Shown piece by piece: positions 7,806 to 44,385 of a stretch of DNA of 64,000 nucleotides. Position numbers and translations under genes: made by a program. The stretch is from a virus (Duplodnaviria > Caudoviricetes). Below the pieces are notes generated by a model, which was not told the DNA's origin, did not search any database, and saw only the letters and a list, made by a program, of their open reading frames with translations. The first letter of the stretch is position 1. Each line of letters begins with the position of its first letter. Location: IMG/VR virus record IMGVR_UViG_3300028412_000003, one strand, 5' to 3'.

Positions 7806-8578
7806 TGAAAATAAAATCATCTTTTTCTAATATAAAATTAAATGATTTAAAAGATCTAACAACACCGGGTCTAAAAAATACTAGACCTGTATTTCTAGGA
7901 AGGTGGGAAGAACATGCAACTACTATTGATAAAAAATGGACTTATTATATAAATGAAATAGGATTTAGAAATTCTTGGCCGGAAAAAATGAAAGATCATA
8001 TTGTTGGAATATATGGATGTAGTAATATCTTTGGTGTTGGAGTTCCAGACGACCTTGTTTGTACTTCTCTATTACAAGAGAAATTTCCCGAAAAAACATT
8101 ATTAAACTTTGGAGTAATGGGCGCTTCTGTCTCGCATATAGCTAGGATATTTCTTATATCTAGTCAACTATTTAAAATTAAAACGGCATTTTTTAGTCTT
8201 CCTAGTATATATAGGATTCTAATGGTAAATGAAGCTGGATATTATAATCTACATCCGGGAACTAATTCCTTAAACAAAGATGGATTAGAAAAAAGAAGAA
8301 AACAATACTATCAATCGATAAACGAAGAAACCTTATTAATGAATTATTTAGACATAGTGGATCATATTATATTAATTGGAAAAGAATTTGGAATTAGGAT
8401 ATATTTTAGTTCATACGAAGAAATAGTACACAAAATATTAATAGAAAATTATAATGACAGTTATATAACAAAACCGATGTATAATAGTAGAAAGGCTACA
8501 GATAATAATCATCCTTGTTATCTTTGTCATAAGGATTATGCAACGATAATTGAAAAGAAATTATTAACTAATGTATGA
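7802..8578 (+). CDS. SGNH/GDSL hydrolase-like protein
   Basis: GIYGCSNIFGVGV, NFGVMGAS, DNNHP (DxxH); start moved to 7802. Confidence 0.6.
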   Translation: MMKIKSSFSNIKLNDLKDLTTPGLKNTRPVFLGRWEEHATTIDKKWTYYINEIGFRNSWPEKMKDHIVGIYGCSNIFGVGVPDDLVCTSLLQEKFPEKTLLNFGVMGASVSHIARIFLISSQLFKIKTAFFSLPSIYRILMVNEAGYYNLHPGTNSLNKDGLEKRRKQYYQSINEETLLMNYLDIVDHIILIGKEFGIRIYFSSYEEIVHKILIENYNDSYITKPMYNSRKATDNNHPCYLCHKDYATIIEKKLLTNV

Positions 8579-9596
8579 TATTGTATTCTTTGGAGAAAGA
8601 AATAATAATTGGGATATTCTTAAAGAAAGATTTCCAACGGCAAAAAATATAACTAATTTAGAAAATATCAACAAGATAACATTCACTAAAATGTATTGGT
8701 TAGTTTATGATGATCTAATTATAAACGAAGACTTTAATTTTGATTATAAAATAGAAGAATGGGATCAAAAATATGTTCATTCTTTTCTCAATAATGGAAA
8801 TTATAATGGAATATCTTTAATACCTAAAACGAAAAATATATCAAAACGAGAAGCAGAATATAGGTTTTTCGTAGACAAGAAAGAAATTCCAATTGAAGCA
8901 TCAACTCCAAATCCATATGATGTAGTTTTTATATCATACAATGAACCTAATGCTGATAAGAATTATAAGAAATTACTTGAGATCGTTCCTTGCGCAAAAA
9001 GAGTAAACGGGATAAACGGGATACACCAAGCTCATATAGAAGCAGCAAAAATATCAGATACTAAAATGTTATGGATTGTTGATGCTGATGCTATAGTTGT
9101 AAATGAATTTAATTTCTCTTATTTGCCATCCGTTTGGGAACAAGACGCCGTTCATGTCTGGAGGTCAAAAAATCCTATTAATGGATTATCTTACGGATAT
9201 GGTGGAATAAAACTTTTTCCGAGAGATCTTACTTTGTCACTTGATATTAACACACCAGATATGACTACTAGCATAAGTGATAGATTTAGAATACACGAAG
9301 ATATTTCTAATCTAACAGAATTTAATACTGATCCTTTTAACACTTGGAAATCAGCTTTTCGTGAATGTGTAAAATTGTCATCTCGAACAATAACAAGACA
9401 AAATGAAAAAGAAACACAAGACCGTTTACAAATCTGGATGACGGTTGGTGCTGATATGCAATATGGTATATATTGTATAGACGGAGCTCGTAGTGGAAAC
9501 GAGTACGGAATAAAAAACAAGGATGATAAAAAGGCCCTTGCAATGATTAACAATTTTGATTGGTTAAAAGAAAAATTTGATGAGCAATGTAATTAA
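8571..9596 (+). CDS. Glycosyltransferase-like protein (GT-A/GT2-like)
   Basis: ISYNEPNAD, AHIEAAK, WIVDADA (DxD), YGYGGIKL; paralog of 1247-2170 with an extra N-terminal region. Confidence 0.65.
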   Translation: MYDIVFFGERNNNWDILKERFPTAKNITNLENINKITFTKMYWLVYDDLIINEDFNFDYKIEEWDQKYVHSFLNNGNYNGISLIPKTKNISKREAEYRFFVDKKEIPIEASTPNPYDVVFISYNEPNADKNYKKLLEIVPCAKRVNGINGIHQAHIEAAKISDTKMLWIVDADAIVVNEFNFSYLPSVWEQDAVHVWRSKNPINGLSYGYGGIKLFPRDLTLSLDINTPDMTTSISDRFRIHEDISNLTEFNTDPFNTWKSAFRECVKLSSRTITRQNEKETQDRLQIWMTVGADMQYGIYCIDGARSGNEYGIKNKDDKKALAMINNFDWLKEKFDEQCN

Positions 9597-33932: not shown

Positions 33933-34802
33933 TCATGTTCCCCATGCGTTTCCGAAGACTTCGACATGGAGCCTTGGGGTATATCTCCAACCTTCTTGCA
34001 TCGCAATTTCAACGATTCTATCTTTATTGAGATAATATTCTTCACTTCTTCCACCCAGCGGCATAAGGTAGACAGGACAATTAATACCGGCTTTGCGGTA
34101 AGCATCAACAGCACGACGAACATCTTCCACATCATCGTCATTAGCGACAACAAACTTAAAATACATGTCGCTATTAGGAACATCAAAGTATTGACGAGCA
34201 ATATCAGGCTGTATTGCAGCATTCCAAGATTCGCCGCTAACTGTGAGCTTAGGCGAACATGAGAACGTAATTCGTATGTGGTCTTGATATCCGAAGAACT
34301 CTTTAAGATTTGATTGAAGATGTTGTGTAGTGTTAGTCTCGAAAGTAACATTTTTTAGATCCTTCATGTTAGGATGGTTAAACAACTCAACATACAATTT
34401 TTGCCAACCAAGCAAAGGTTCACCGCCTGTTAAAATAAAATGTATATCTTGTCCATTATCTAAAGACCATTTGCCGGTTGGAGTTAATTTCAATAAATTA
34501 TCAACTACGTCGTTTACTGTTTCATTTTTCATAAAACGTTTAAATTCAGGATAGATACTAGCATAAGTGTCACATCCTGTGTGTATAATCGGAAGGTCTT
34601 CAAATTTTTCATATTGGTCAATACCATTCTCTAGAAGTTGTTCTACTTCTGGATTATATTTTCCAACTTCTTGATCTTTAGGAAGACCAAATTTCTTGCA
34701 TCGAAAATTGCAACCAAAAGTTCGAAGAAATACACTAGGCACTCCAACAAACTTACCTTCACCTTGTATAGAATAAAATGCTTCGCTATATCTTAATTTC
34801 AT
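33933..34802 (-). CDS. queE: 7-carboxy-7-deazaguanine synthase QueE (radical SAM)
   Basis: YSEAFYSIQGEG..GVPSVFLRTFGCNFRC, CDT, LTGGEPL, FETN, SPKL, PRLH; adjacent to folE; start at 34802 by ATGA overlap. Confidence 0.85.
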   Translation of the reverse strand: MKLRYSEAFYSIQGEGKFVGVPSVFLRTFGCNFRCKKFGLPKDQEVGKYNPEVEQLLENGIDQYEKFEDLPIIHTGCDTYASIYPEFKRFMKNETVNDVVDNLLKLTPTGKWSLDNGQDIHFILTGGEPLLGWQKLYVELFNHPNMKDLKNVTFETNTTQHLQSNLKEFFGYQDHIRITFSCSPKLTVSGESWNAAIQPDIARQYFDVPNSDMYFKFVVANDDDVEDVRRAVDAYRKAGINCPVYLMPLGGRSEEYYLNKDRIVEIAMQEGWRYTPRLHVEVFGNAWGT

Positions 34803-35485
34803 CTTGGTGCCCACTGTTGTTGTAGTTTGATGTTATCAAAGAATTCTTGCTTTGTGGCAGGATCATGTTTAAATGCACCTTTTAGCACAGTAGTCTGTGT
34901 CAAACTAGAATGTGCCATTATGCCTCTGTTTTCGCAACATCCGTGAGTTGCTTGTATGTAAACTCCGACATCATTGCTGCCTGTTGCAGAAATTATTTCT
35001 TTTGCAATATCATTACATAATTCTTCTTGTAATGTACCACGTCTTGCACACCATTGTGCAATTCTTGTATATTTGCTGAGTCCTATCAATGTTTCTGCAG
35101 CAATAATTCCAATGTAAGCAACACCTGTAACAGGTTGATGGTGATGCGAGCAAACTGATTTAATTTCACTTCGCACCACCAACATTCCTGTATAACCATC
35201 TTCGACTTCGTTTGGGAACGAAGTTGCATCTGGCATTGGATAATATCTTCCACGCATTAATTCGTGTATATACATTTTCGCTAGTCTTCTACCTGTGTCC
35301 TTGCTATTAGGATCATTTAATCGATCTATAACAAGCGAGTCAAGCACTGCTTCAAATTTTTCTGTGAGCTCGTCAGTTAATTCTTCTAGCTCACCTTCTT
35401 GAATATGTTGGCTGATATTATCTCCAGCCCAATATGTATTACCTTCTTTTAAAATTCTATTCTTAATAATATTAGAGATAGTCAA
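34799..35485 (-). CDS. folE: GTP cyclohydrolase I
   Basis: SVCSHHHQP, GLSKYTRIA, LQEEL, HGCCENRG; TTG start. Confidence 0.92.
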   Translation of the reverse strand: MTISNIIKNRILKEGNTYWAGDNISQHIQEGELEELTDELTEKFEAVLDSLVIDRLNDPNSKDTGRRLAKMYIHELMRGRYYPMPDATSFPNEVEDGYTGMLVVRSEIKSVCSHHHQPVTGVAYIGIIAAETLIGLSKYTRIAQWCARRGTLQEELCNDIAKEIISATGSNDVGVYIQATHGCCENRGIMAHSSLTQTTVLKGAFKHDPATKQEFFDNIKLQQQWAPR

Positions 35486-35568: not shown

Positions 35569-35820
35569 TTAACCGTCAAACCTACTATCTTTTACTTGTT
35601 GTTCAGCCCATGCCTTTTCTTCGGGAGCAACAGTGTTAAATTCAATTACCCGAAATCTTTTCCAAATAGCACCTGCTTCTTTTGCTTCCTGTTCGGAATT
35701 GTAAGTAACAACAATTCTATCACCTACAATACCATTTGGATGTTCGGTTGTTACATAAATCCAATCATCATGGCCTTCTTCATCCTTACTAAACGGTATT
35801 TGTATTGAATATACTTTCAT
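35569..35820 (-). CDS. Hypothetical protein
   Basis: 83-aa ORF. Confidence 0.5.
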   Translation of the reverse strand: MKVYSIQIPFSKDEEGHDDWIYVTTEHPNGIVGDRIVVTYNSEQEAKEAGAIWKRFRVIEFNTVAPEEKAWAEQQVKDSRFDG

Positions 35821-36317
35821 TATTCAGACTCCCAAGGATAAACTAACCAAACGTTTTCTTCGTTCTTATCAATCTCTTCAAATACATAATTAACAGAACC
35901 AAATCCACTTGATATGTTATCGGTCATTACTGCAAAACGAACGTTTCCACCCCATATAGTTCCATCGGTCCATTTACCGTCAAGTGGACAACACGAAGAA
36001 TTCCAATCTTTTTGTATCCATTCAAAAGTAGCACCTTTATCGTTTATGTCATCTACTATAAGTATTTTTTTTCCATTAAACGCATCTTCTGCCATCCAAA
36101 GATTTGATTCAACGTCGTCTGGATTACTTCTAAGGCTAACATTAAGAGTGTGACACGGAATTTGGATAATATGAGACAACATAACTGCGAGTGTAAGTCC
36201 ACCCCTTGTTATACCAACAATATAATCAGGTTTCCATTCATCTCGTAACATTTGTTTGAGAAAAGTGTTACAAGCATCGTCAACGTCGTTCCAGTCATAA
36301 TATTGTTTATTTTTCAC
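35820..36317 (-). CDS. Purine phosphoribosyltransferase (Gpt/Hpt-like type I PRTase)
   Basis: IVGITRGGL, PRPP-binding ILIVDDINDKGAT, C-terminal WLVYPWE; probable GTG start at 36317. Confidence 0.8.
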   Translation of the reverse strand: MKNKQYYDWNDVDDACNTFLKQMLRDEWKPDYIVGITRGGLTLAVMLSHIIQIPCHTLNVSLRSNPDDVESNLWMAEDAFNGKKILIVDDINDKGATFEWIQKDWNSSCCPLDGKWTDGTIWGGNVRFAVMTDNISSGFGSVNYVFEEIDKNEENVWLVYPWESE

Positions 36318-36636
36318 CTTTGATAATCTCCAATGTTTCGTATTTGTTTTTAATTTCAACATACCGAGTACCTGCTCTTTTAAGTTCGGGGTACTTTTCT
36401 TCCATTACAAGATCTCTTTCAACTATTAATAGTCGTTCTTGCAAATTGCGTATAGCTTCATCTACGTTTTCTATATTTGCTGTAGATAGATATGATGAAA
36501 AGAGTACATCAGCGTCTATTCTATCACATCTTATATTACCATTAATTCTCACTTCTGGAATAGAATCAAAGTTATTACGAATAGTATCAGATATTTTTGT
36601 TCCCGAACTTGCTATTGGATTAATTGTTAATCCCAT
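36307..36636 (-). CDS. Hypothetical protein
   Basis: 109-aa ORF. Confidence 0.5.
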   Translation of the reverse strand: MGLTINPIASSGTKISDTIRNNFDSIPEVRINGNIRCDRIDADVLFSSYLSTANIENVDEAIRNLQERLLIVERDLVMEEKYPELKRAGTRYVEIKNKYETLEIIKGEK

Positions 36637-36950
36637 TATATTTCACCTCTGTCTTTTCTTCCATCGTAATCATCTTTTGACATCATATACAATAATTTAA
36701 ATTTTTCATATTGAGAAGCTAATGGAGGATAATGTTCACACATTTCTTTTATCTTTTCGAGTGGAGGCATATAATTTTCAAAATCTATTTCCTTTTCATC
36801 TATACCTGTTTTTATAGTATAAATGATATCAGATGTGTTTATTTTATTGATCGTCATACTAGGCTGATAGTACATATTAAAATCGGTATAATAATTTAAA
36901 TCTGTACTTATATTGAAAACCGTGTCATAGTTCTTATCGCTCGAATTCAT
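36636..36950 (-). CDS. Hypothetical protein
   Basis: 104-aa ORF. Confidence 0.5.
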   Translation of the reverse strand: MNSSDKNYDTVFNISTDLNYYTDFNMYYQPSMTINKINTSDIIYTIKTGIDEKEIDFENYMPPLEKIKEMCEHYPPLASQYEKFKLLYMMSKDDYDGRKDRGEI

Positions 36951-38028
36951 TTATTACCTCGTAAATTCTATCTCCATTAAAGAATTCTTGCTCTAACATC
37001 CTACATTGAATTGCAATTTTAGGAATGTATGTAGAATAATTCTCTATATATTCTTTAATTTGATTTTTAATCAGTTCTTGATTTTCTATATAATTGTCAA
37101 AACTAGAAGTCCAATTAGAAGGATATTTAAAATCATATATTGCCATTTCAGTGTATGAAAGACGATTTGGTACCATTGGAATACAATTAACTTGAAGTCC
37201 TTCATACCAACTTATGCCTAGTGTTTCTTGTAGGTTAGCAGAAAAAACTATTTTAGCTCTTCCTAAGAGATTATAATATTCGTTCTTTGTAAGAGTTTGA
37301 TCTTGACAAACAATAAACTCATATTCTGGCATATGCTGTTTGAGATCACGAAAGATCTCAACTTGTTTTTCGGGTGCAATGCGATGGGGGAAAAGAATTA
37401 AATTTTCTTTTGGCATTCCTTTATATTGTGTTAATGATCCTGATAGATATTCCATCGGCCATCCTGCACGAACAATAGTGTCATTTGCTAATTTAGGATC
37501 AGTTATATCCCATCCTTTACCATTATCCCATCCAAATATTCCATTAGAAAACATTTGGATATGGTAATCGGTTGCAAAGAAGTTATGATCGTAACTGCTG
37601 AACATTGAATGTTCAGCAGAACGAATCCAGGGTTGGTCACCAATTAATCGACCAAGGAAATCTTGTGGATCATAACTTCCTGCATGCCACATCCCACCAA
37701 TTTTAATGTGTATTCCTAGCAAGGAAGCCATATACTTTAATTGTATAACGGTTGGATTCCATGCATCAGTGTACAAGAAATAATCATTATTCTTTATTTG
37801 ACCATTACAAAACAATTCACCAATTTGCATTAACTGATTGCTTTTGTAGATATTAGTTCCGCCAAAGTTTAAAAAGGCACCTGGCGTTGTAGATTGAGGA
37901 ACATCTCCTCCAGAGATTACAACTACTTCTTCAGTTGTTCTCTTTTGTATTTGCTTTGGAAGATACTCTTTCCATTGTTTAGTATAGCGATTATCAACCG
38001 CCTCAATATCTACAATATAAATGGTCAT
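36934..38028 (-). CDS. GT-B fold glycosyltransferase (GT4-like)
   Basis: FPHRIAPEKQ (R..K donor site) and ETLGISWYE (EX7E). Confidence 0.75.
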   Translation of the reverse strand: MTIYIVDIEAVDNRYTKQWKEYLPKQIQKRTTEEVVVISGGDVPQSTTPGAFLNFGGTNIYKSNQLMQIGELFCNGQIKNNDYFLYTDAWNPTVIQLKYMASLLGIHIKIGGMWHAGSYDPQDFLGRLIGDQPWIRSAEHSMFSSYDHNFFATDYHIQMFSNGIFGWDNGKGWDITDPKLANDTIVRAGWPMEYLSGSLTQYKGMPKENLILFPHRIAPEKQVEIFRDLKQHMPEYEFIVCQDQTLTKNEYYNLLGRAKIVFSANLQETLGISWYEGLQVNCIPMVPNRLSYTEMAIYDFKYPSNWTSSFDNYIENQELIKNQIKEYIENYSTYIPKIAIQCRMLEQEFFNGDRIYEVINEFER

Positions 38029-38213
38029 CTCTTGTACCTATTATCTCTTGTTTGCCGTGGTCTACCTTTGCTTCTAGTATAAACCTGGTATGCTCTCCAA
38101 CTATCACTAGAATTCTTATAAAGATCTGCCTCATTAAAAACCTTGCCATTAAAACGACAATAATCTCGGAATTGATCTAAATCATCAAATATCCGTTCGA
38201 GTTCAATTTTCAT
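38025..38213 (-). CDS. Small hypothetical protein
   Basis: MKIELERIFDDLDQFRDYCRF; start moved to 38213. Confidence 0.5.
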   Translation of the reverse strand: MKIELERIFDDLDQFRDYCRFNGKVFNEADLYKNSSDSWRAYQVYTRSKGRPRQTRDNRYKR

Positions 38214-38637
38214 TCTCATCCTTTCTTGGATAAAATAGTGTGGCACCATTTTCGCCGTCTTCTGCTACTTCTATTTCTACAAAGCGACCGGGGTACCTTT
38301 TATTAATTTGCTTATATAAATCATCTGCTATCATTTCGCAAGACCTATGATTTAATTCAAGTTTTTCTTGATATAATGATTCTAACCAACGCTTAAATTG
38401 TATAAATTCAATATCTCTATCGTTGTGAAACACTTCAATTCGAACACGAAAATGAAATAAATGTCTATGTTCGTATCCTAAGAAACTAACATCATATTCA
38501 TCTCCGGTCGCAAGAGCAGCATTAGTGTCTGCTCCGGGATAAAAATGTATTCCTTCTTTCCTAAAAGTAATCCAAATACTTCTTATTGGATCTAAGTTAT
38601 TCTTTTCTGGTTCTTTATTAAACCAATAATTCTTCAT
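38203..38637 (-). CDS. dpdL: QueD-paralog T-fold protein (DpdL-like, putative CDG decarboxylase)
   Basis: FLGYEHRHLF fits the LxxxHRHxF signature I recall for DpdL; RDIEFIQFK, SCEMIA; lies in a deazaguanine locus. The symbol is tentative. Confidence 0.6.
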   Translation of the reverse strand: MKNYWFNKEPEKNNLDPIRSIWITFRKEGIHFYPGADTNAALATGDEYDVSFLGYEHRHLFHFRVRIEVFHNDRDIEFIQFKRWLESLYQEKLELNHRSCEMIADDLYKQINKRYPGRFVEIEVAEDGENGATLFYPRKDENEN

Positions 38638-39170
38638 TATGATATTATCTCGTCTTTTGTATATTTTGACCAGTCTGTAAATACTCGTCTGTCTTGTAAA
38701 TCATGGATTGGATGAACCCATACGCCTGGATTTGATTTACGAAAGTCACTGTCATCTATTTTTAGGCAGGCGTTATAATTTAATGATTTAATGTTTGGTA
38801 TCTTTACACTTATGAGAGGAATAAAACGATCATACTCTCCCCAACAAAACTCAGTTACAAACTCGTGATATTTAATATCATAATCGAGTGTAAACCACAT
38901 TTCACTCTTTGATAGCTCTTTCATTAAATTAGTCCAATATTTTATTTCTTCGTCTGTACCATTTGGTAAAGTAGGATTAAACGATTGATTAGCCCCAAGA
39001 TAAATGTGTTCACAACCTTTTATTCTAGCATATTCTAATATATCTTCTGCTAGTGGTTTCTTAGTAAGAAACAATGTTTTCATTCCATAAGCAGGAGTAT
39101 GTTCTACTTCAACACCTATAAAAGTGGAAACATCATTAGAAGTTACGTTTCCTGAGTATTGTCTTTCCAT
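38637..39170 (-). CDS. Uncharacterised protein in the deazaguanine locus
   Basis: 177-aa ORF coupled between the TGT-like and DpdL-like genes. Confidence 0.6.
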   Translation of the reverse strand: MERQYSGNVTSNDVSTFIGVEVEHTPAYGMKTLFLTKKPLAEDILEYARIKGCEHIYLGANQSFNPTLPNGTDEEIKYWTNLMKELSKSEMWFTLDYDIKYHEFVTEFCWGEYDRFIPLISVKIPNIKSLNYNACLKIDDSDFRKSNPGVWVHPIHDLQDRRVFTDWSKYTKDEIIS

Positions 39171-39337
39171 TGTAATTCTTTCTCTACTTTAAATAATTCA
39201 TCTTTTATTGCTAATTTTTTGATTTTAAGTTTGCTTATTTCTTCTGTAGGCAGTTTATTATTATAAGCGTCTTTCACTTGTTTGTCAAGAATATTATGTT
39301 TTTCAGTTAATGATTCTATACGATTAGTCAAGGTCAT
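39143..39337 (-). CDS. Small coiled-coil protein (DUF465-like)
   Basis: LTEKHNILDKQV..LKIKKLAIKDEL. Confidence 0.55.
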   Translation of the reverse strand: MTLTNRIESLTEKHNILDKQVKDAYNNKLPTEEISKLKIKKLAIKDELFKVEKELQWKDNTQET

Positions 39338-40922
39338 TCTCTAATTTCTCCAATAACTCTTCATTTTCTTCTGTGAAGGTTTCTTCTTGTGTAACAGTTT
39401 CTTCTTCTTCAAAAAGACTATGAAAAAATGTTGTTGAGTTAATGGTCTTCTTACCAATTGCACCTCGTGTACCAGGAATATCCATCCAATATGCACGATG
39501 CTCTTCAACTAACGCTTCTGCCTTTTCTCTGTCGTCTGTAGCAAAAATATCTTCAACTATATCACGAAAAAATTCTCTCTTATAAGTTCGAAACTTCTTT
39601 CCGTGTAATTTCGAAGCAATTAGCATATGTGGAAATGTACCAGAATCACACATTCTATTAGCTTCCTGTACTGCATTGATATGAGACCAAACATTATGTC
39701 CCATTTGTATAGCATATGAAAAGCTGTCCCAAGAAGTTCTTCCTTCTTTACCTATTTTATTTAGGTCTCCCGGCTTATAGATACACACGTCTGATACCCC
39801 TAATCCATCTGTTATAGGAGAATCAACGAAGTCTCTAGTTATTAATACATTGCCGGCTGAATCTTTCTTATCAAAAATACCATCTTGTAAAACAGTATCA
39901 CGAAATCCACGAGGATCAGTTGCATATTTTTTGTTATCAATACTTGGTAACATTCGATATGTCCATTTACCCATAGGTTCTGTTTCAGTCTGTAAATAAA
40001 TTTGTCCATTAGCAGTAGCTAAGAAAGGACTTGCACAATCAAATGTTATTGTATAATTTTCATTATGATGTTTTCGAACTGCACGCTGTATATCTGTTAA
40101 CAAACATGCCCATTCTAATTTTGAAGTACCCAAAAAGTGCATAAAATCATGAACACCCTTTTCTAAATATCCATCAAAACGAAGTGCAATCAAACGCTTT
40201 AACACAAGGTGGACATCACACATATTTTGTCCACCCATTGACCATCCTTCAAAATGTTCATTTGGATATTTCTTTGGATCACAAAAATCACGCATCTGAA
40301 AATACCAATCGTCGGCTTCTTGAAATGTTTCACCCTGCAGAACGTTTAGAAATTTACAATTACCATTTCTATTCTTAATAAAATAATCATTATTAATTCT
40401 AGTAGCGTCAACTGCTCCTTGATATGAATTAATACCTGTTGCCGCTGCACCTGCAGGTGAACGAGCTACCCAGGCCGGAATATCTAATATCATTCCGTAA
40501 TCCATATATTTGTCCATCCAACTAAGAACATCTGTTCTTTTCTTCATTGCTTTAGGACAACTTGGATCCTTCCAATTGCCTTCCCACACTCCCTTACCAA
40601 TCTGGAAACCACCACTGTCACCAAGTACCCAAGAATTTTCACGATCTCTATTTCGGATCATATCTTCTTTAGGTGAATCCTTATTAACATCTAATTCAGC
40701 ATGTCCTGCTGAATAAAGTGACCATTTGTAATGAAATGCTCCTTCTTTTTTATTTAGGTAATTGAGACTTTCAACTCCGTTGTTAAAATTAGAAGGTATA
40801 CGAGTCTTATCTACATATTCACCAAAGCGTTGTTTACCTACATAAGTGGCATAGAAACCACTTAATGCAGGAAGAAAAAACGCATAATCGTTTTGTGTTG
40901 AGGTTAAATCTCTGTTAATCAT
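39324..40922 (-). CDS. dpdA: TGT-superfamily transglycosylase, DpdA-like (deazaguanine insertion)
   Basis: LGDSGGFQ (TGT catalytic Asp motif), NVLQG, GWSMGG, HFLG, TFDCASP; clustered with folE/queE. Confidence 0.78.
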   Translation of the reverse strand: MINRDLTSTQNDYAFFLPALSGFYATYVGKQRFGEYVDKTRIPSNFNNGVESLNYLNKKEGAFHYKWSLYSAGHAELDVNKDSPKEDMIRNRDRENSWVLGDSGGFQIGKGVWEGNWKDPSCPKAMKKRTDVLSWMDKYMDYGMILDIPAWVARSPAGAAATGINSYQGAVDATRINNDYFIKNRNGNCKFLNVLQGETFQEADDWYFQMRDFCDPKKYPNEHFEGWSMGGQNMCDVHLVLKRLIALRFDGYLEKGVHDFMHFLGTSKLEWACLLTDIQRAVRKHHNENYTITFDCASPFLATANGQIYLQTETEPMGKWTYRMLPSIDNKKYATDPRGFRDTVLQDGIFDKKDSAGNVLITRDFVDSPITDGLGVSDVCIYKPGDLNKIGKEGRTSWDSFSYAIQMGHNVWSHINAVQEANRMCDSGTFPHMLIASKLHGKKFRTYKREFFRDIVEDIFATDDREKAEALVEEHRAYWMDIPGTRGAIGKKTINSTTFFHSLFEEEETVTQEETFTEENEELLEKLENDLD

Positions 40923-41650
40923 TTAGCCTGCGCTGGAAGAATATAATCGTATGTAGCTAATCCGCTATCAACAGATATCTTCATTGCGCCCTGATCTGAT
41001 AATCTCATAGTTATCTTACCATCTAAGCTAAGTATAGCAAGGGTTTGAGCAACAGGCCAAGACCATGTGTGCTTTAATTCACCTGTTATATTACTTTGAA
41101 AAATAAATTTTCCTGCATGTGATGATTCATCACCAAATGTCATTACTAATGCACCGTCTTCGGTTTTAACATTAACTATTAATTCATCTGGATTTCCAGC
41201 AGCCTGTAACTTCATTCTTCTTATAGAATCAATAGCGGGTTCAAGTTCAACGTTCCATGTTGCTCCCTTAAACTTCACATTCTTTAATTTTTCTTCAATG
41301 TGAGCTTGATTCATAAATCTATAATCATTTTCAAAATCACCATTTGAATTCTCAAAATGAATATGTGTATTGATAGTTTCTCCCTTTCGAACATCAGTCT
41401 TAATTTCAAGAACACTATCTTTTTCGTATTCTGGATTTTTTAGATGAAAAGCCAGAAGTCCTAAGTTTGGCATGCCAAACGTACCAATAAATTCATCAAC
41501 CTTATTTTTAGTTGCAGCCATTAGTATAACTGTTCTATCTTCAGACATAGTTTCAATTTTAGTCTTGTCTTCTTCGTTTGTCACCTTAACTAGGGATAAG
41601 AACCCCAATGAATGTGTATGCGCTATAATATCTTTAAGTATATCTTTCAT
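40919..41650 (-). CDS. DNA polymerase sliding clamp (gp45/PCNA-like)
   Basis: 243 aa, directly after polB, C-terminal SGLATYDYILPAQ; start moved to MKDILKD (GGAG RBS). Confidence 0.7.
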   Translation of the reverse strand: MKDILKDIIAHTHSLGFLSLVKVTNEEDKTKIETMSEDRTVILMAATKNKVDEFIGTFGMPNLGLLAFHLKNPEYEKDSVLEIKTDVRKGETINTHIHFENSNGDFENDYRFMNQAHIEEKLKNVKFKGATWNVELEPAIDSIRRMKLQAAGNPDELIVNVKTEDGALVMTFGDESSHAGKFIFQSNITGELKHTWSWPVAQTLAILSLDGKITMRLSDQGAMKISVDSGLATYDYILPAQAK

Positions 41651-41672
41651 ATTATTCTCCGTATGATTTATT

Positions 41673-41701
41673 ATATTACTATGAATTTTTCGTATTGTCA
41701 A
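41673..41701 (-). promoter_or_regulatory. Sigma70-type promoter for the clamp-dpdA operon
   Basis: TTGACA-17-TAATAT on the - strand. Confidence 0.55.
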
Positions 41702-41718
41702 GAAAAATCATCTTTTGA

Positions 41719-44385
41719 TTAATCTCCAAAATCAAATAAACTTCCAAATGTTGTGTCTTGTTTTGTAGATTCGATGTCATAATTCAAGACACCTATTAAG
41801 TTATCAATTTTATTATCAATGATAGTATTTTCCATTGCTCTGTCATCAAAAGGTAAATCCTTAAACCATTGCGGTAAGCGTAGTTCGTCTGTTGGAAATG
41901 CAACACTTGTAAATCCTAATGGATTTGGCCTTAGTTTACAAACGATAACTTTCATTCCATCAACTATGTCTTGGCTGTAACGATCACTATTCATTCTTTT
42001 TAAAGTATTCCAATTAAGTGATGCACGAACGTGTCCTGGCATATTTGCCTTTCCTTTTTCTTCTTCTAAATCTCGAAATTTACTTAGGTTGTTAACACGT
42101 TTGGGAGTTCCTTTTTCCCAACCAGGCCGTTCCTTAAATAGACTACGAAAATCTTCAATCTTTTTTAAAATTTCGTTTTCGTCTTTTGTTGTTAAAACCA
42201 TAAGTAGAATATCCTTAAGGAAGTCTTGCATAAAAACCGGAGTATCTGATCGCCGCAAATCTAATCCCATTGCTTTAACCTTACCAATTTGACCGTCTAT
42301 ATCTTTTCTGTTACCGTCGTCGTCAATTACTAGGGCAGCATATCTTTTCTTAGTAATATACAATCCACTCTGTGCAACAATTTCTCTACCTGCTGCAATA
42401 ACACCTGAGCGAGATTTAGGACAATGATATGCATCAGCCATAAATCTAGTAAATGATTTATTTGTTTCTTCTGCTACTTGATCATATAACTGAATTATAC
42501 GTTCCTTTTCCCAAGGAATAGTACCATTGTCTATTTCGTCTTTTAGTATAGGATAAGCACTAAAATAAACAGAATCGGTATCACCGTATATAACAGCCTT
42601 ACCAACGTGGTCATATTCTCCTGTTATTACTTCGTTTGCCTTTGCACTCATATGTTGAACAATTCCTCTACCAGTAAGTGTAGTTGATTGACCAATTCTT
42701 TTATCAAAGAACCTACAACCTGGATTTAAGATAGCACCATATAAGCTATTCAAATTAATCTTCTTAACAAGCTGACGCTTGTCCCAAAAGGCTATTTCGG
42801 TTTTATTGTTGGCATCAATTGCCTTTTTTAATTTTGCTTGTAATTCTTTACGTTCTGAATACCAACGTTTTAGAAGTCCAGGAATGACAGCTTCGAATTC
42901 ATTTGTAAAAATAGTACCATTAGCACTAATCATCCAAGGATTGTTACTATTGAATATAAGTTCGTAGGTTTCTGCACCGCTAAGTACATCAACATCTCCG
43001 TTCTCCCAATCGATGGTAATATCTTTACCTCTATTTTTTTCTATCATATGTTTGTATTCAATAGAACTAAACAATCCTTCCCATGCTCCTGCAAAAGACT
43101 TCTTCTCAAAAGTCATCTTTTCTTTTATATAAGCATCGGTATCGGTTGGTCGTAATTGGCCAACTACTGCTTCCGGAGCCATATTCAATGCACGAATAAC
43201 AGATGGATATAGTGAATTTAAATCCATTGATGCTAACCACATATGCAAGCCTTTCTTTGGATAAGCAACATATGCTCCGGCTGCACTTGAATTCTCTCGG
43301 TCAACAACTGGACGATTAGGAACTACCATTCCTCTATCATGTGCTTCGTTTATGATAGCCTGTTCGGTAACTGCAACTGCTCCCATAGTAGTTTGCAATA
43401 AAACAGTATTAGAATGAGCTAGTTCGTTTGACAAATCAATAAAGCGAAGTTTACGATCAAGTTTATCAAGCAACGAAGTATCTTGTCTGTTATATTCAAT
43501 AAACTTTTTAAAGTCATTATTATATAATTGATCAAGTGTTCCTTCGTATACTGTTTTGTTTTCACCTATTTCAATTTCACCAATAGCATCCAACCGATAA
43601 GAATGTCTTTCTTCATAATTATATTTACGATACAATTCTAAACTATCGAGATGAACTCTGCCAATTAAATCAAATGTTACTGCTTCTTTACCGTATTTTT
43701 CATAGAGTCGTTTCTTTGGAAGTTGATCCCATAAACAAAATCTTCTAGTATCATTCTTACTTAATACTCTTGCAACACGGTTAACTGTATACGGAATATC
43801 ATATCCTTCACTATTCCAACCAGTTAACATATCGGCATCTTCTATTAGATCAAGAAATGCAGATAACATTTCACCTTCGTCACTGTAGAGATAGGTATTA
43901 GGAAAATCTTTAACTTGCTCTTCTGCATCTTTCATACTAAGCCCCTTTGGAGGCATAGCAAGGGTGACTAGTGTATCCATCCATTGTAAACAAACACTAA
44001 TAGCAGTGATTGGCATAAATGGATCACTTGGCTGAGCAAATCCTTTTTCTGGATCAAAGTCAGTCTCAATATCAAAAAATGCAATATTAAGTTCTGGTGC
44101 ATCTGCAGTGAGGTAATTCTCACTTAAACATTGAAAAATAGGATTAATGTCGCTTTCAAATAAAGTTTTGCTTTTATTGATCGCTACTTCTTTTCTAAAT
44201 TCCTTTGTATTTTTACAAACTATTCTTGTTACTGGATCACCGTAAACACTTCGTTGTTTACCAGCTGGATCCTTATAATAGAATGTATATTTAATAGGAT
44301 ATTCTTTAAATATCCTCTTGCCTTCTTTACGTTCAACGACACGAATAATATCCGCATCTCTATCAAACATTGCATCAATGTACAT
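41719..44385 (-). CDS. polB: Family B DNA polymerase
   Basis: ExoI FFDIETD, motif A DLNSLYPS, motif B KINLNSLYG, motif C YGDTDS, KKRYA; no intein visible. Confidence 0.95.
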   Translation of the reverse strand: MYIDAMFDRDADIIRVVERKEGKRIFKEYPIKYTFYYKDPAGKQRSVYGDPVTRIVCKNTKEFRKEVAINKSKTLFESDINPIFQCLSENYLTADAPELNIAFFDIETDFDPEKGFAQPSDPFMPITAISVCLQWMDTLVTLAMPPKGLSMKDAEEQVKDFPNTYLYSDEGEMLSAFLDLIEDADMLTGWNSEGYDIPYTVNRVARVLSKNDTRRFCLWDQLPKKRLYEKYGKEAVTFDLIGRVHLDSLELYRKYNYEERHSYRLDAIGEIEIGENKTVYEGTLDQLYNNDFKKFIEYNRQDTSLLDKLDRKLRFIDLSNELAHSNTVLLQTTMGAVAVTEQAIINEAHDRGMVVPNRPVVDRENSSAAGAYVAYPKKGLHMWLASMDLNSLYPSVIRALNMAPEAVVGQLRPTDTDAYIKEKMTFEKKSFAGAWEGLFSSIEYKHMIEKNRGKDITIDWENGDVDVLSGAETYELIFNSNNPWMISANGTIFTNEFEAVIPGLLKRWYSERKELQAKLKKAIDANNKTEIAFWDKRQLVKKINLNSLYGAILNPGCRFFDKRIGQSTTLTGRGIVQHMSAKANEVITGEYDHVGKAVIYGDTDSVYFSAYPILKDEIDNGTIPWEKERIIQLYDQVAEETNKSFTRFMADAYHCPKSRSGVIAAGREIVAQSGLYITKKRYAALVIDDDGNRKDIDGQIGKVKAMGLDLRRSDTPVFMQDFLKDILLMVLTTKDENEILKKIEDFRSLFKERPGWEKGTPKRVNNLSKFRDLEEEKGKANMPGHVRASLNWNTLKRMNSDRYSQDIVDGMKVIVCKLRPNPLGFTSVAFPTDELRLPQWFKDLPFDDRAMENTIIDNKIDNLIGVLNYDIESTKQDTTFGSLFDFGD

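Follow-up and report, generated by a model that had tools for sequence, protein, structure and literature searches.

Among the described systems that place a 7-deazaguanine in phage DNA, the closest to the locus studied here is that of the Cellulophaga phage phiST, which consists of FolE, QueD, QueE, DpdL and DpdA3 and leaves plain dDG in the phage DNA (Cui et al., 2023, PMC10516641). In the same work, eight deazaguanine DNA bases are listed, none of them with a sugar, there is no mention of glycosylation, and DpdL is proposed to be a 7-carboxy-7-deazaguanine (CDG) decarboxylase, an activity that was not observed in E. coli. In huimycin and the dapiramicins, which are 7-deazaguanine derivatives, it is the 2-amino group that bears the sugar; HuiG, the assigned transferase, acts on a free preQ0 derivative (PMC7439116). 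QTMAN (GTDC1), the tRNA-queuosine alpha-mannosyltransferase, transfers mannose from GDP-mannose to queuosine that is already in tRNA, namely Q34 of tRNA-Asp (10.64898/2026.06.28.735034). The presence of yhhQ inside bacterial dpd clusters is likewise already known (PMC5699537), and the DNA of phage PA5oct resists five restriction enzymes and has been proposed to be G-modified, with no chemistry given (PMC12191111).

The window analysed here, by which the whole stretch of 64 kb is meant, is apparently part of a large tailed phage with a family B polymerase, a clamp, an exonuclease and a thymidylate synthase. Its deazaguanine genes (Table 1) are transcribed in the order polymerase, clamp, DpdA, a 64-aa ORF, a 177-aa gene, DpdL, a 62-aa ORF and the glycosyltransferase (GT), followed by two small ORFs, a phosphoribosyltransferase (PRTase), an 83-aa ORF, FolE, QueE, a 126-aa ORF and the exonuclease. 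The original prediction had placed the GT between a DpdL-like gene and the PRTase, which is where it lies, flanked by a small ORF of 62 aa on its upstream side and by two, of 104 and 109 aa, on its downstream side. The first of two perfect sigma-70 consensus sequences (39288-39260) precedes the 177-aa gene, DpdL, the GT and the PRTase, and the ORFs in this part overlap or abut.

Table 1. Features of the deazaguanine locus in the window, in order of transcription.
Feature	Coordinates	Strand	Basis
Family B DNA polymerase with a probable sliding clamp, immediately upstream of dpdA	40919..44385	-	Profiles; Phosso homologue annotated clamp
DpdA, TGT-like DNA transglycosylase, 532 aa	39324..40922	-	Atlas matches, motif alignment
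Perfect sigma-70 consensus TTGACA-17-TATAAT	39260..39288	-	Consensus match only
Conserved protein, 177 aa, GxEVE motif	38637..39170	-	Model, homologues
DpdL, QueD paralogue, 144 aa, proposed CDG decarboxylase	38203..38637	-	LxxxHRHxF motif
62-aa ORF, stop overlapping GT start codon	38025..38213	-	ORF overlap
GT, predicted GT-B GT4-type glycosyltransferase, 364 aa	36934..38028	-	ORF, AlphaFold2 model, fold search, alignment
PRTase, purine-type	35820..36362	-	PF00156 E 1e-13
Second perfect sigma-70 consensus, in front of FolE	35565-35538	-	Consensus match
FolE, GTP cyclohydrolase I	34799..35485	-	Profiles
QueE, CDG synthase (radical SAM)	33933..34814	-	Profiles

The DpdL-type pathway is represented in the window by a DpdA with TGT motifs, a DpdL with the signature LxxxHRHxF, FolE and QueE, a set shared with phiST (Cui et al., 2023, PMC10516641), and QueC, which phiST lacks, was likewise not found in related records; the DpdA of the window is about twice as long, and the GT, the 177-aa protein and the PRTase are additional. 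The 532-aa DpdA had no match in the profile library, the Atlas search led to TGT and DpdA clusters, and the alignment with bacterial TGT revealed that the catalytic motifs are kept (D102, D147, Q196-G197, H262 and D295). In DpdL, the signature reads LGYEHRHLF at residue 53, and a tblastn search matched the protein to CGPG_00067, the DpdL of phiST, with an E value of 6e-9. QueD had no match within the 64-kb window and is present elsewhere in four of five related genomes; QueC exceeded the cut-off in none of the ten related records searched, comprising six complete cultured phages and four long contigs. The cultured phage Paride has two QueD-like genes next to folE (L211:5496-8261), at a distance of 55 kb from its dpdA-GT-dpdL block.

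The model of the 177-aa protein (pLDDT 87.7) forms a partial alpha/beta barrel in which E21 and E23 are invariant. A QueE-like fold was considered and rejected, as three QueE structures scored Z 5.3-5.6, within the background, and there was no clear fold match. The protein is kept together with the GT in both subfamilies described below, and in distant loci its homologues are fused to a PAPS-reductase-like domain (L176:6946-8001; L184:6926-7981). The PRTase, whose best NCBIfam match is a xanthine PRTase below the cut-off, accompanies the cluster in the lineage of the window and could salvage the guanine freed by DpdA or make deazaguanine nucleotides. On the plus strand, an island at 2172-25629 contains about 12 genes of the radical SAM/SPASM type, one that resembles a fatty-acid desaturase gene, and a number of uncharacterised ORFs; it ends 11 kb from the GT. 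Two DxD-containing plus-strand ORFs (1247-2170 and 8571-9596) stand 27-35 kb from the GT, and a Pfam search did not confirm a GT-A identity for them.

The GT ORF begins with ATG, runs uninterrupted over 364 aa and is also called as a gene in independent assemblies, the longest contig measuring 228 kb. Profile searches with Pfam, PHROGs and NCBIfam gave no real match for the protein, and a PDB sequence search with the GT alone gave nothing useful. Pfam PF00534 did not match the window GT, its homologues in BUDD (45.7 bits) and BUCT-ZZ01 (26.5 bits) lie above the curated cut-off, and in the Atlas search the GT falls among viral GT4-like clusters. The AlphaFold2 model (pLDDT 84.8, pTM 0.86) consists of two Rossmann-like domains over the full length. 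Foldseek matched it to BshA (E 1e-7, probability 1.0) and also to glycogen synthase, and VIA to sucrose-phosphate synthase (Z 23.2, rmsd 3.3, 318 aligned residues), BshA (Z 22.1) and PglA (Z 20.9); the top matches are enzymes acting on small molecules. The EX7E motif, E268-x7-E276, lies in the C-terminal domain, and both glutamates, as well as the basic donor-phosphate residues R216 and K221, are invariant across 58 diverse homologues with identities down to 22%. Judged by its model, the product is a GT-B fold, GT4-type glycosyltransferase, predicted to be retaining; the EX7E GT4-like enzyme originally proposed was thus borne out by the intact ORF, by E268 and E276, and by a model that fits GT-B enzymes of GT4/GT5. 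Twelve residues are invariant in the 58 homologues (E9, R14, Y15, H115, D123, R216, E220, K221, E268, G271, E276 and E294), a pattern in the alignment that argues for a live enzyme with a single conserved acceptor site. The GT is acidic (pI 5.1) and gives no sign of a DNA-binding surface, and DpdA is equally acidic; a prediction of the GT-DpdA complex scored 0.00, which is uninformative either way.

The motif pattern of the GT resembles that of QTMAN, and this likeness was then tested. When the GT-family profile was run on 251 Pseudomonadota genomes, in which PF12038 marked 19 QTMAN genes, rank 1 was a true family member and ranks 2-20 were exactly these 19 genes, with 34.8-61 bits as opposed to at most 28.6 bits for all other proteins. 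The comparison of the two families with hhalign gave 98.8% (E 7e-17) over residues 145-337 only, which is the donor half, and the QTMAN profile matches the window GT with an E value of 3e-12. In a tree of the C-terminal halves, the GT family and QTMAN split from ten other GT4 enzymes with a support of 100/100, QTMAN being on a long branch, although the outgroup is small, branches are long and the direction of descent is not fixed by this tree. By sequence, the closest named family of the GT is QTMAN/GTDC1, for the donor half only. PF12038 (QTMAN_N) has no match in the window GT, nor in the genome of family member G001, and since the acceptor domain is unlike QTMAN_N, the GT family is a relative of QTMAN and not a member. 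Common to both would be the GT4-type EX7E motif and the action on a 7-deazaguanine put into a nucleic acid by an enzyme of the TGT fold. The GT differs in that its partner is DpdA instead of a tRNA TGT, that its family is almost wholly viral and that QueC was absent from the phage records searched, so that no queuosine cyclopentenediol is to be expected from the locus.

T4 AGT and BGT, which the original prediction cited as precedents, and other phage glycosyltransferases of modified cytosines share with the GT the GT-B fold and the proposed post-replicative sugar coat on phage DNA, but their acceptor is a hydroxyl group on a pyrimidine, and the window shows no hmC pathway. AGT and BGT are probably also not its closest relatives, and QTMAN/GTDC1 was preferred as the best match: AGT (1y6f) reached rank 36 in VIA (Z 16.8, rmsd 4.6), below many GT4 enzymes, BGT was absent among the 50 best chains listed, which does not speak against a likeness further down, and no Pfam, PHROG or PDB-sequence match linked the GT to enzymes of this type.

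The original prediction also described the GT as embedded within deazaguanine genes, and this linkage to DpdA and DpdL holds across lineages in which the gene order is shuffled. DpdL is the nearest named gene upstream of the GT in all 80 IMG/VR loci (63-69% identity), which represent one lineage. Each of the seven cultured lineages with the GT also encodes a DpdA (Paride/PA5oct, Phosso, ACP17, BUDD/X1, BCSR5, BUCT-ZZ01 and PhiXhv-15), and the order varies between DpdA-GT-DpdL in Paride, DpdL-GT-FolE in Phosso, DpdA-GT-DpdL-QueE in ACP17, GT-DpdA-DpdL-QueE in BUDD, GT-DpdA in BCSR5 and DpdA-DpdL-GT in BUCT-ZZ01. Long distances separate dpdA from the GT in Phosso and in PhiXhv-15, about 90 kb in the latter. 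A second GT subfamily with about 25% identity has deazaguanine genes within 8 kb in 26 of 28 loci, 23 of them with DpdA, and among representatives at 50% identity picked blind, all six retrieved contexts adjoin DpdA or DpdL, five recognised by HMM and the sixth, where the gene is truncated, by its motif. No complete genome with the GT and without dpdA was found; contigs L172, L173 and L192 show no DpdA, but as fragments of 21-52% completeness they are uninformative. Conversely, five DpdL phages, including phiST, lack the GT in the profile search, and as phiST has plain dDG, the GT looks like an optional step downstream of DpdA. Many loci are kin, hence the counts overstate their independence; nevertheless, gene neighbourhoods in many separate lineages make a functional tie of the GT to the deazaguanine pathway well supported, and we regard it as very likely that the enzyme acts on a deazaguanine in some form. 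The family is very large: clustering at 90% identity gives at least 8000 clusters, and at 50% identity there are 712 representatives (E < 1e-30).

Several loci contain further genes. PhiXhv-15, a Xanthomonas phage, had been considered as a GT phage without deazaguanine genes, which was rejected when DpdA, FolE and QueE were found elsewhere in its genome; its GT lies among genes for an L/F-transferase, a GNAT, an amidotransferase, a PIG-L protein and a Gfo/Idh/MocA protein (L111:1567-10824), a set that may build a complex sugar-amino acid modification. Of the 28 loci of the second subfamily, 14 encode a fusion of a PIG-L deacetylase with DpdL and 16 have a PAPS-reductase-like gene; the fusions, found within L167-L194, can have such a gene as a neighbour (e.g., L168:6747-7586), and the combination suggests a deacetylated, further modified amino sugar. 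A second, different GT4 in some phage clusters (L085:6001-7344; L215:5643-7505) and in bacterial cassettes hints at a disaccharide. One GT (P0383, L212:1288-2880), located between DpdL and DpdA, carries a 170-aa N-terminal extension with a helix-turn-helix and nuclease-like look. Finally, two loci beside head genes (L177:4346-6358; L181:9076-14283) encode a DpdA joined to a phage serine protease domain of the XkdF type (PF14550), and the modification may thus be tied to packaging.

Members of the family also occur in Alphaproteobacteria. Among the genome-binned loci L093-L110, the deazaguanine linkage is present in 18 of 18, and in 13 a Vut_1 gene is part of a VUT-GT-DpdA cassette, with hosts from Shimia, Sulfitobacter, Roseobacter, Thalassobius, Lentilitoribacter, Azospirillum, Pelagibacterium and Devosia. 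These cassettes are compact, often near tyrosine recombinases and without other phage genes, whereas several GTDB matches to the GT are phage contigs inside MAGs. The cassettes pair the GT with a phage-type DpdA and no DpdL, and their enzymes fall inside the subclade of the window GT (99/97) in the tree described above. They resemble the bacterial dpd islands with yhhQ in having a VUT/YhhQ precursor transporter beside a DpdA, but add a GT and use a phage-type DpdA (PMC5699537). Three of five cassette hosts lack full QueC and QueF while tgt and queA are kept, and two of these also have no QueE match, which means that, if the assemblies are complete, the base must be imported. In L101:7492-13471 and in L094-L109, the cassette is followed by a conserved protein of about 585 aa, often with a second GT4 on the other strand, and a two-component pair stands upstream; the cassette is possibly an undescribed defence or self-marking system.

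Context and homology alone lead us to favour, as the best reading and with somewhat better than even probability, that the GT glycosylates a 7-deazaguanine inserted into DNA by DpdA. The chemistry of FolE, QueD and QueE is established, as is the insertion of deazaguanines into DNA by the DpdA family. With the GT as the presumed last, optional step of the phage pathway, FolE, QueD (encoded elsewhere in the genome) and QueE would convert GTP to CDG, which DpdL would probably decarboxylate, DpdA would exchange guanine for the deazaguanine base in replicated DNA, and the GT, with an NDP-sugar as donor, would transfer the sugar to the modified base in a retaining reaction. Such a sugar would protect the genome against restriction enzymes as well as against defences directed at bare deazaguanines. 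The sugared purine of the original prediction is retained, but its direct analogy to glucosyl-hmC is not, since FolE, QueD, QueE and DpdL without QueC should lead to 7-deazaguanine or its 7-carboxy form, on which no hydroxymethyl group is expected. The +162 Da shift named there is only one of several possible mass shifts.

That the expected base offers no hydroxyl acceptor counts against glycosylation in DNA, as do the top fold matches to small-molecule enzymes, the likeness to QTMAN in the donor half only, the acidity of the GT, a DpdL whose role is itself a proposal, and the distance to dpdA in Phosso and PhiXhv-15. 7-Deazaguanine bears nothing at C7. If enzymes of one subclade use DG or CDG in phages but an imported base, perhaps preQ0 or preQ1, in bacteria, what these acceptors have in common would be the ring itself. 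For the acceptor, we favour the exocyclic N2 amine over a 7-carboxylate ester or a side chain from an accessory enzyme, and these over a ring carbon or O6; by analogy with huimycin and the dapiramicins, N2 receives about half the weight within the in-DNA reading (PMC7439116). A sugar at N2 would sit in the minor groove with base pairing kept. The alternatives are an ester of CDG, a side group that the 177-aa protein or radical SAM neighbours would attach, and bacteria that import DG itself. The conserved TGT aspartates read the 2-amino face of guanine, and because DpdA keeps them, transfer after insertion is favoured. The candidate donor is GDP-mannose, by likeness to QTMAN, or UDP-GlcNAc in the PIG-L subfamily, as PIG-L and the PhiXhv-15 amidotransferase, annotated GlmS, point to an N-acetyl sugar in that subfamily; no PIG-L or GlmS-type gene is near in the subclade of the window GT.

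The most serious alternative, which we nonetheless consider unlikely, is that the GT glycosylates a free deazapurine base, nucleoside or nucleotide, so that a base already carrying its sugar is inserted by DpdA, or that the glycoside stores or removes surplus 7-deazaguanine and never reaches DNA. Small-molecule GT4 enzymes, including BshA and pterin glucosyltransferases, are the best fold matches, the GT mostly stands beside DpdL, a T-fold enzyme predicted to use a free base, the PIG-L-DpdL fusions of the distant loci point the same way, and the PRTase and the VUT importer handle free bases. The cassettes, however, pair the GT with DpdA and no DpdL, QTMAN acts on the polymer after insertion, and the base-reading aspartates of DpdA would, judged by the structure of TGT, leave little room for an N2 sugar. 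HuiG, which works on a free preQ0 derivative, also speaks for this alternative; it is similar, as described, in being a glycosyltransferase inside a FolE/QueD/QueE cluster that targets N2 of 7-deazaguanine, but its product is a free antibiotic and its cluster has QueC and no DpdA (PMC7439116). It is very unlikely that the GT, like QTMAN, has tRNA as its substrate and modifies queuosine or a deazaguanine there, which would tune translation in the infected cell, with a TGT-like partner that may modify RNA: QTMAN is the nearest named family and the cassette hosts keep tgt and queA, but the QTMAN_N domain is without a match, the locus adjoins the polymerase and clamp genes and has DpdL without QueC, neither TGT nor DpdA is encoded within about 7 kb of seven bacterial QTMAN genes, and it is the DNA of PA5oct that resists restriction as G-modified DNA would (PMC12191111).

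Slightly less likely again is the modification of another DNA base or site made by a different enzyme, with the linkage to dpdA reflecting a clustering of DNA-protection genes. The phage GT-B enzymes AGT and the HY126 enzyme share the fold (Z 16.8 and 16.9 in VIA), and in PhiXhv-15 the GT stands among amidotransferase, PIG-L, GNAT and oxidoreductase genes, remote from dpdA; against this, nothing else that would modify a base is encoded upstream of DpdA in the minimal VUT-GT-DpdA cassette, every complete genome found with the GT has dpdA, and the thymidylate synthase of the window is canonical (PFNIASY) and not a dCMP hydroxymethylase, which also speaks against hmC as the acceptor. The least probable explanation is that of an ordinary surface, LPS or protein glycosyltransferase placed in the operon by chance, as the automatic name 'glycosyltransferase involved in cell wall biosynthesis' implies and as the GT clusters for surface polysaccharides in jumbo phages would allow (PMC7824862), whereas the GT has no membrane segment (maximum 19-residue hydropathy 1.03), lies outside the plus-strand island and keeps its linkage to DpdA and DpdL through shuffled gene orders.

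We conclude that the GT locus is a real feature that extends the DpdL-type deazaguanine system by a predicted glycosylation step. A search of the accessible literature found no glycosylated purine in phage DNA and no description of a glycosylated deazaguanine or of this GT, although there may be an earlier computational mention; the DNA of this phage probably carries a sugar-bearing purine described in no paper found. The full picture, to which we give a little less than even chances, is that large aquatic phages and alphaproteobacterial mobile islands carry a glycosylated 7-deazaguanine in their DNA, likely a minor-groove N2-glycoside and the first of its kind found, that QTMAN arose from or beside this GT family, and that the sugar of the second subfamily is deacetylated and decorated further. 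If glycosylation of the inserted base is true, this would be the first enzymatically glycosylated purine found in DNA. What is predicted is a new class of DNA base, and the phages concerned are very common. The reading also offers a prediction for the G modification in PA5oct and Paride, two cultured jumbo phages of Pseudomonas, and gives QTMAN a relative on the DNA side, and the GT could yield a labelling tool for deazaguanine DNA. It is relevant, too, to phage evasion of glycosylases and nucleases directed against bare deazaguanines (10.1101/2025.10.29.685425; PMC12191111).
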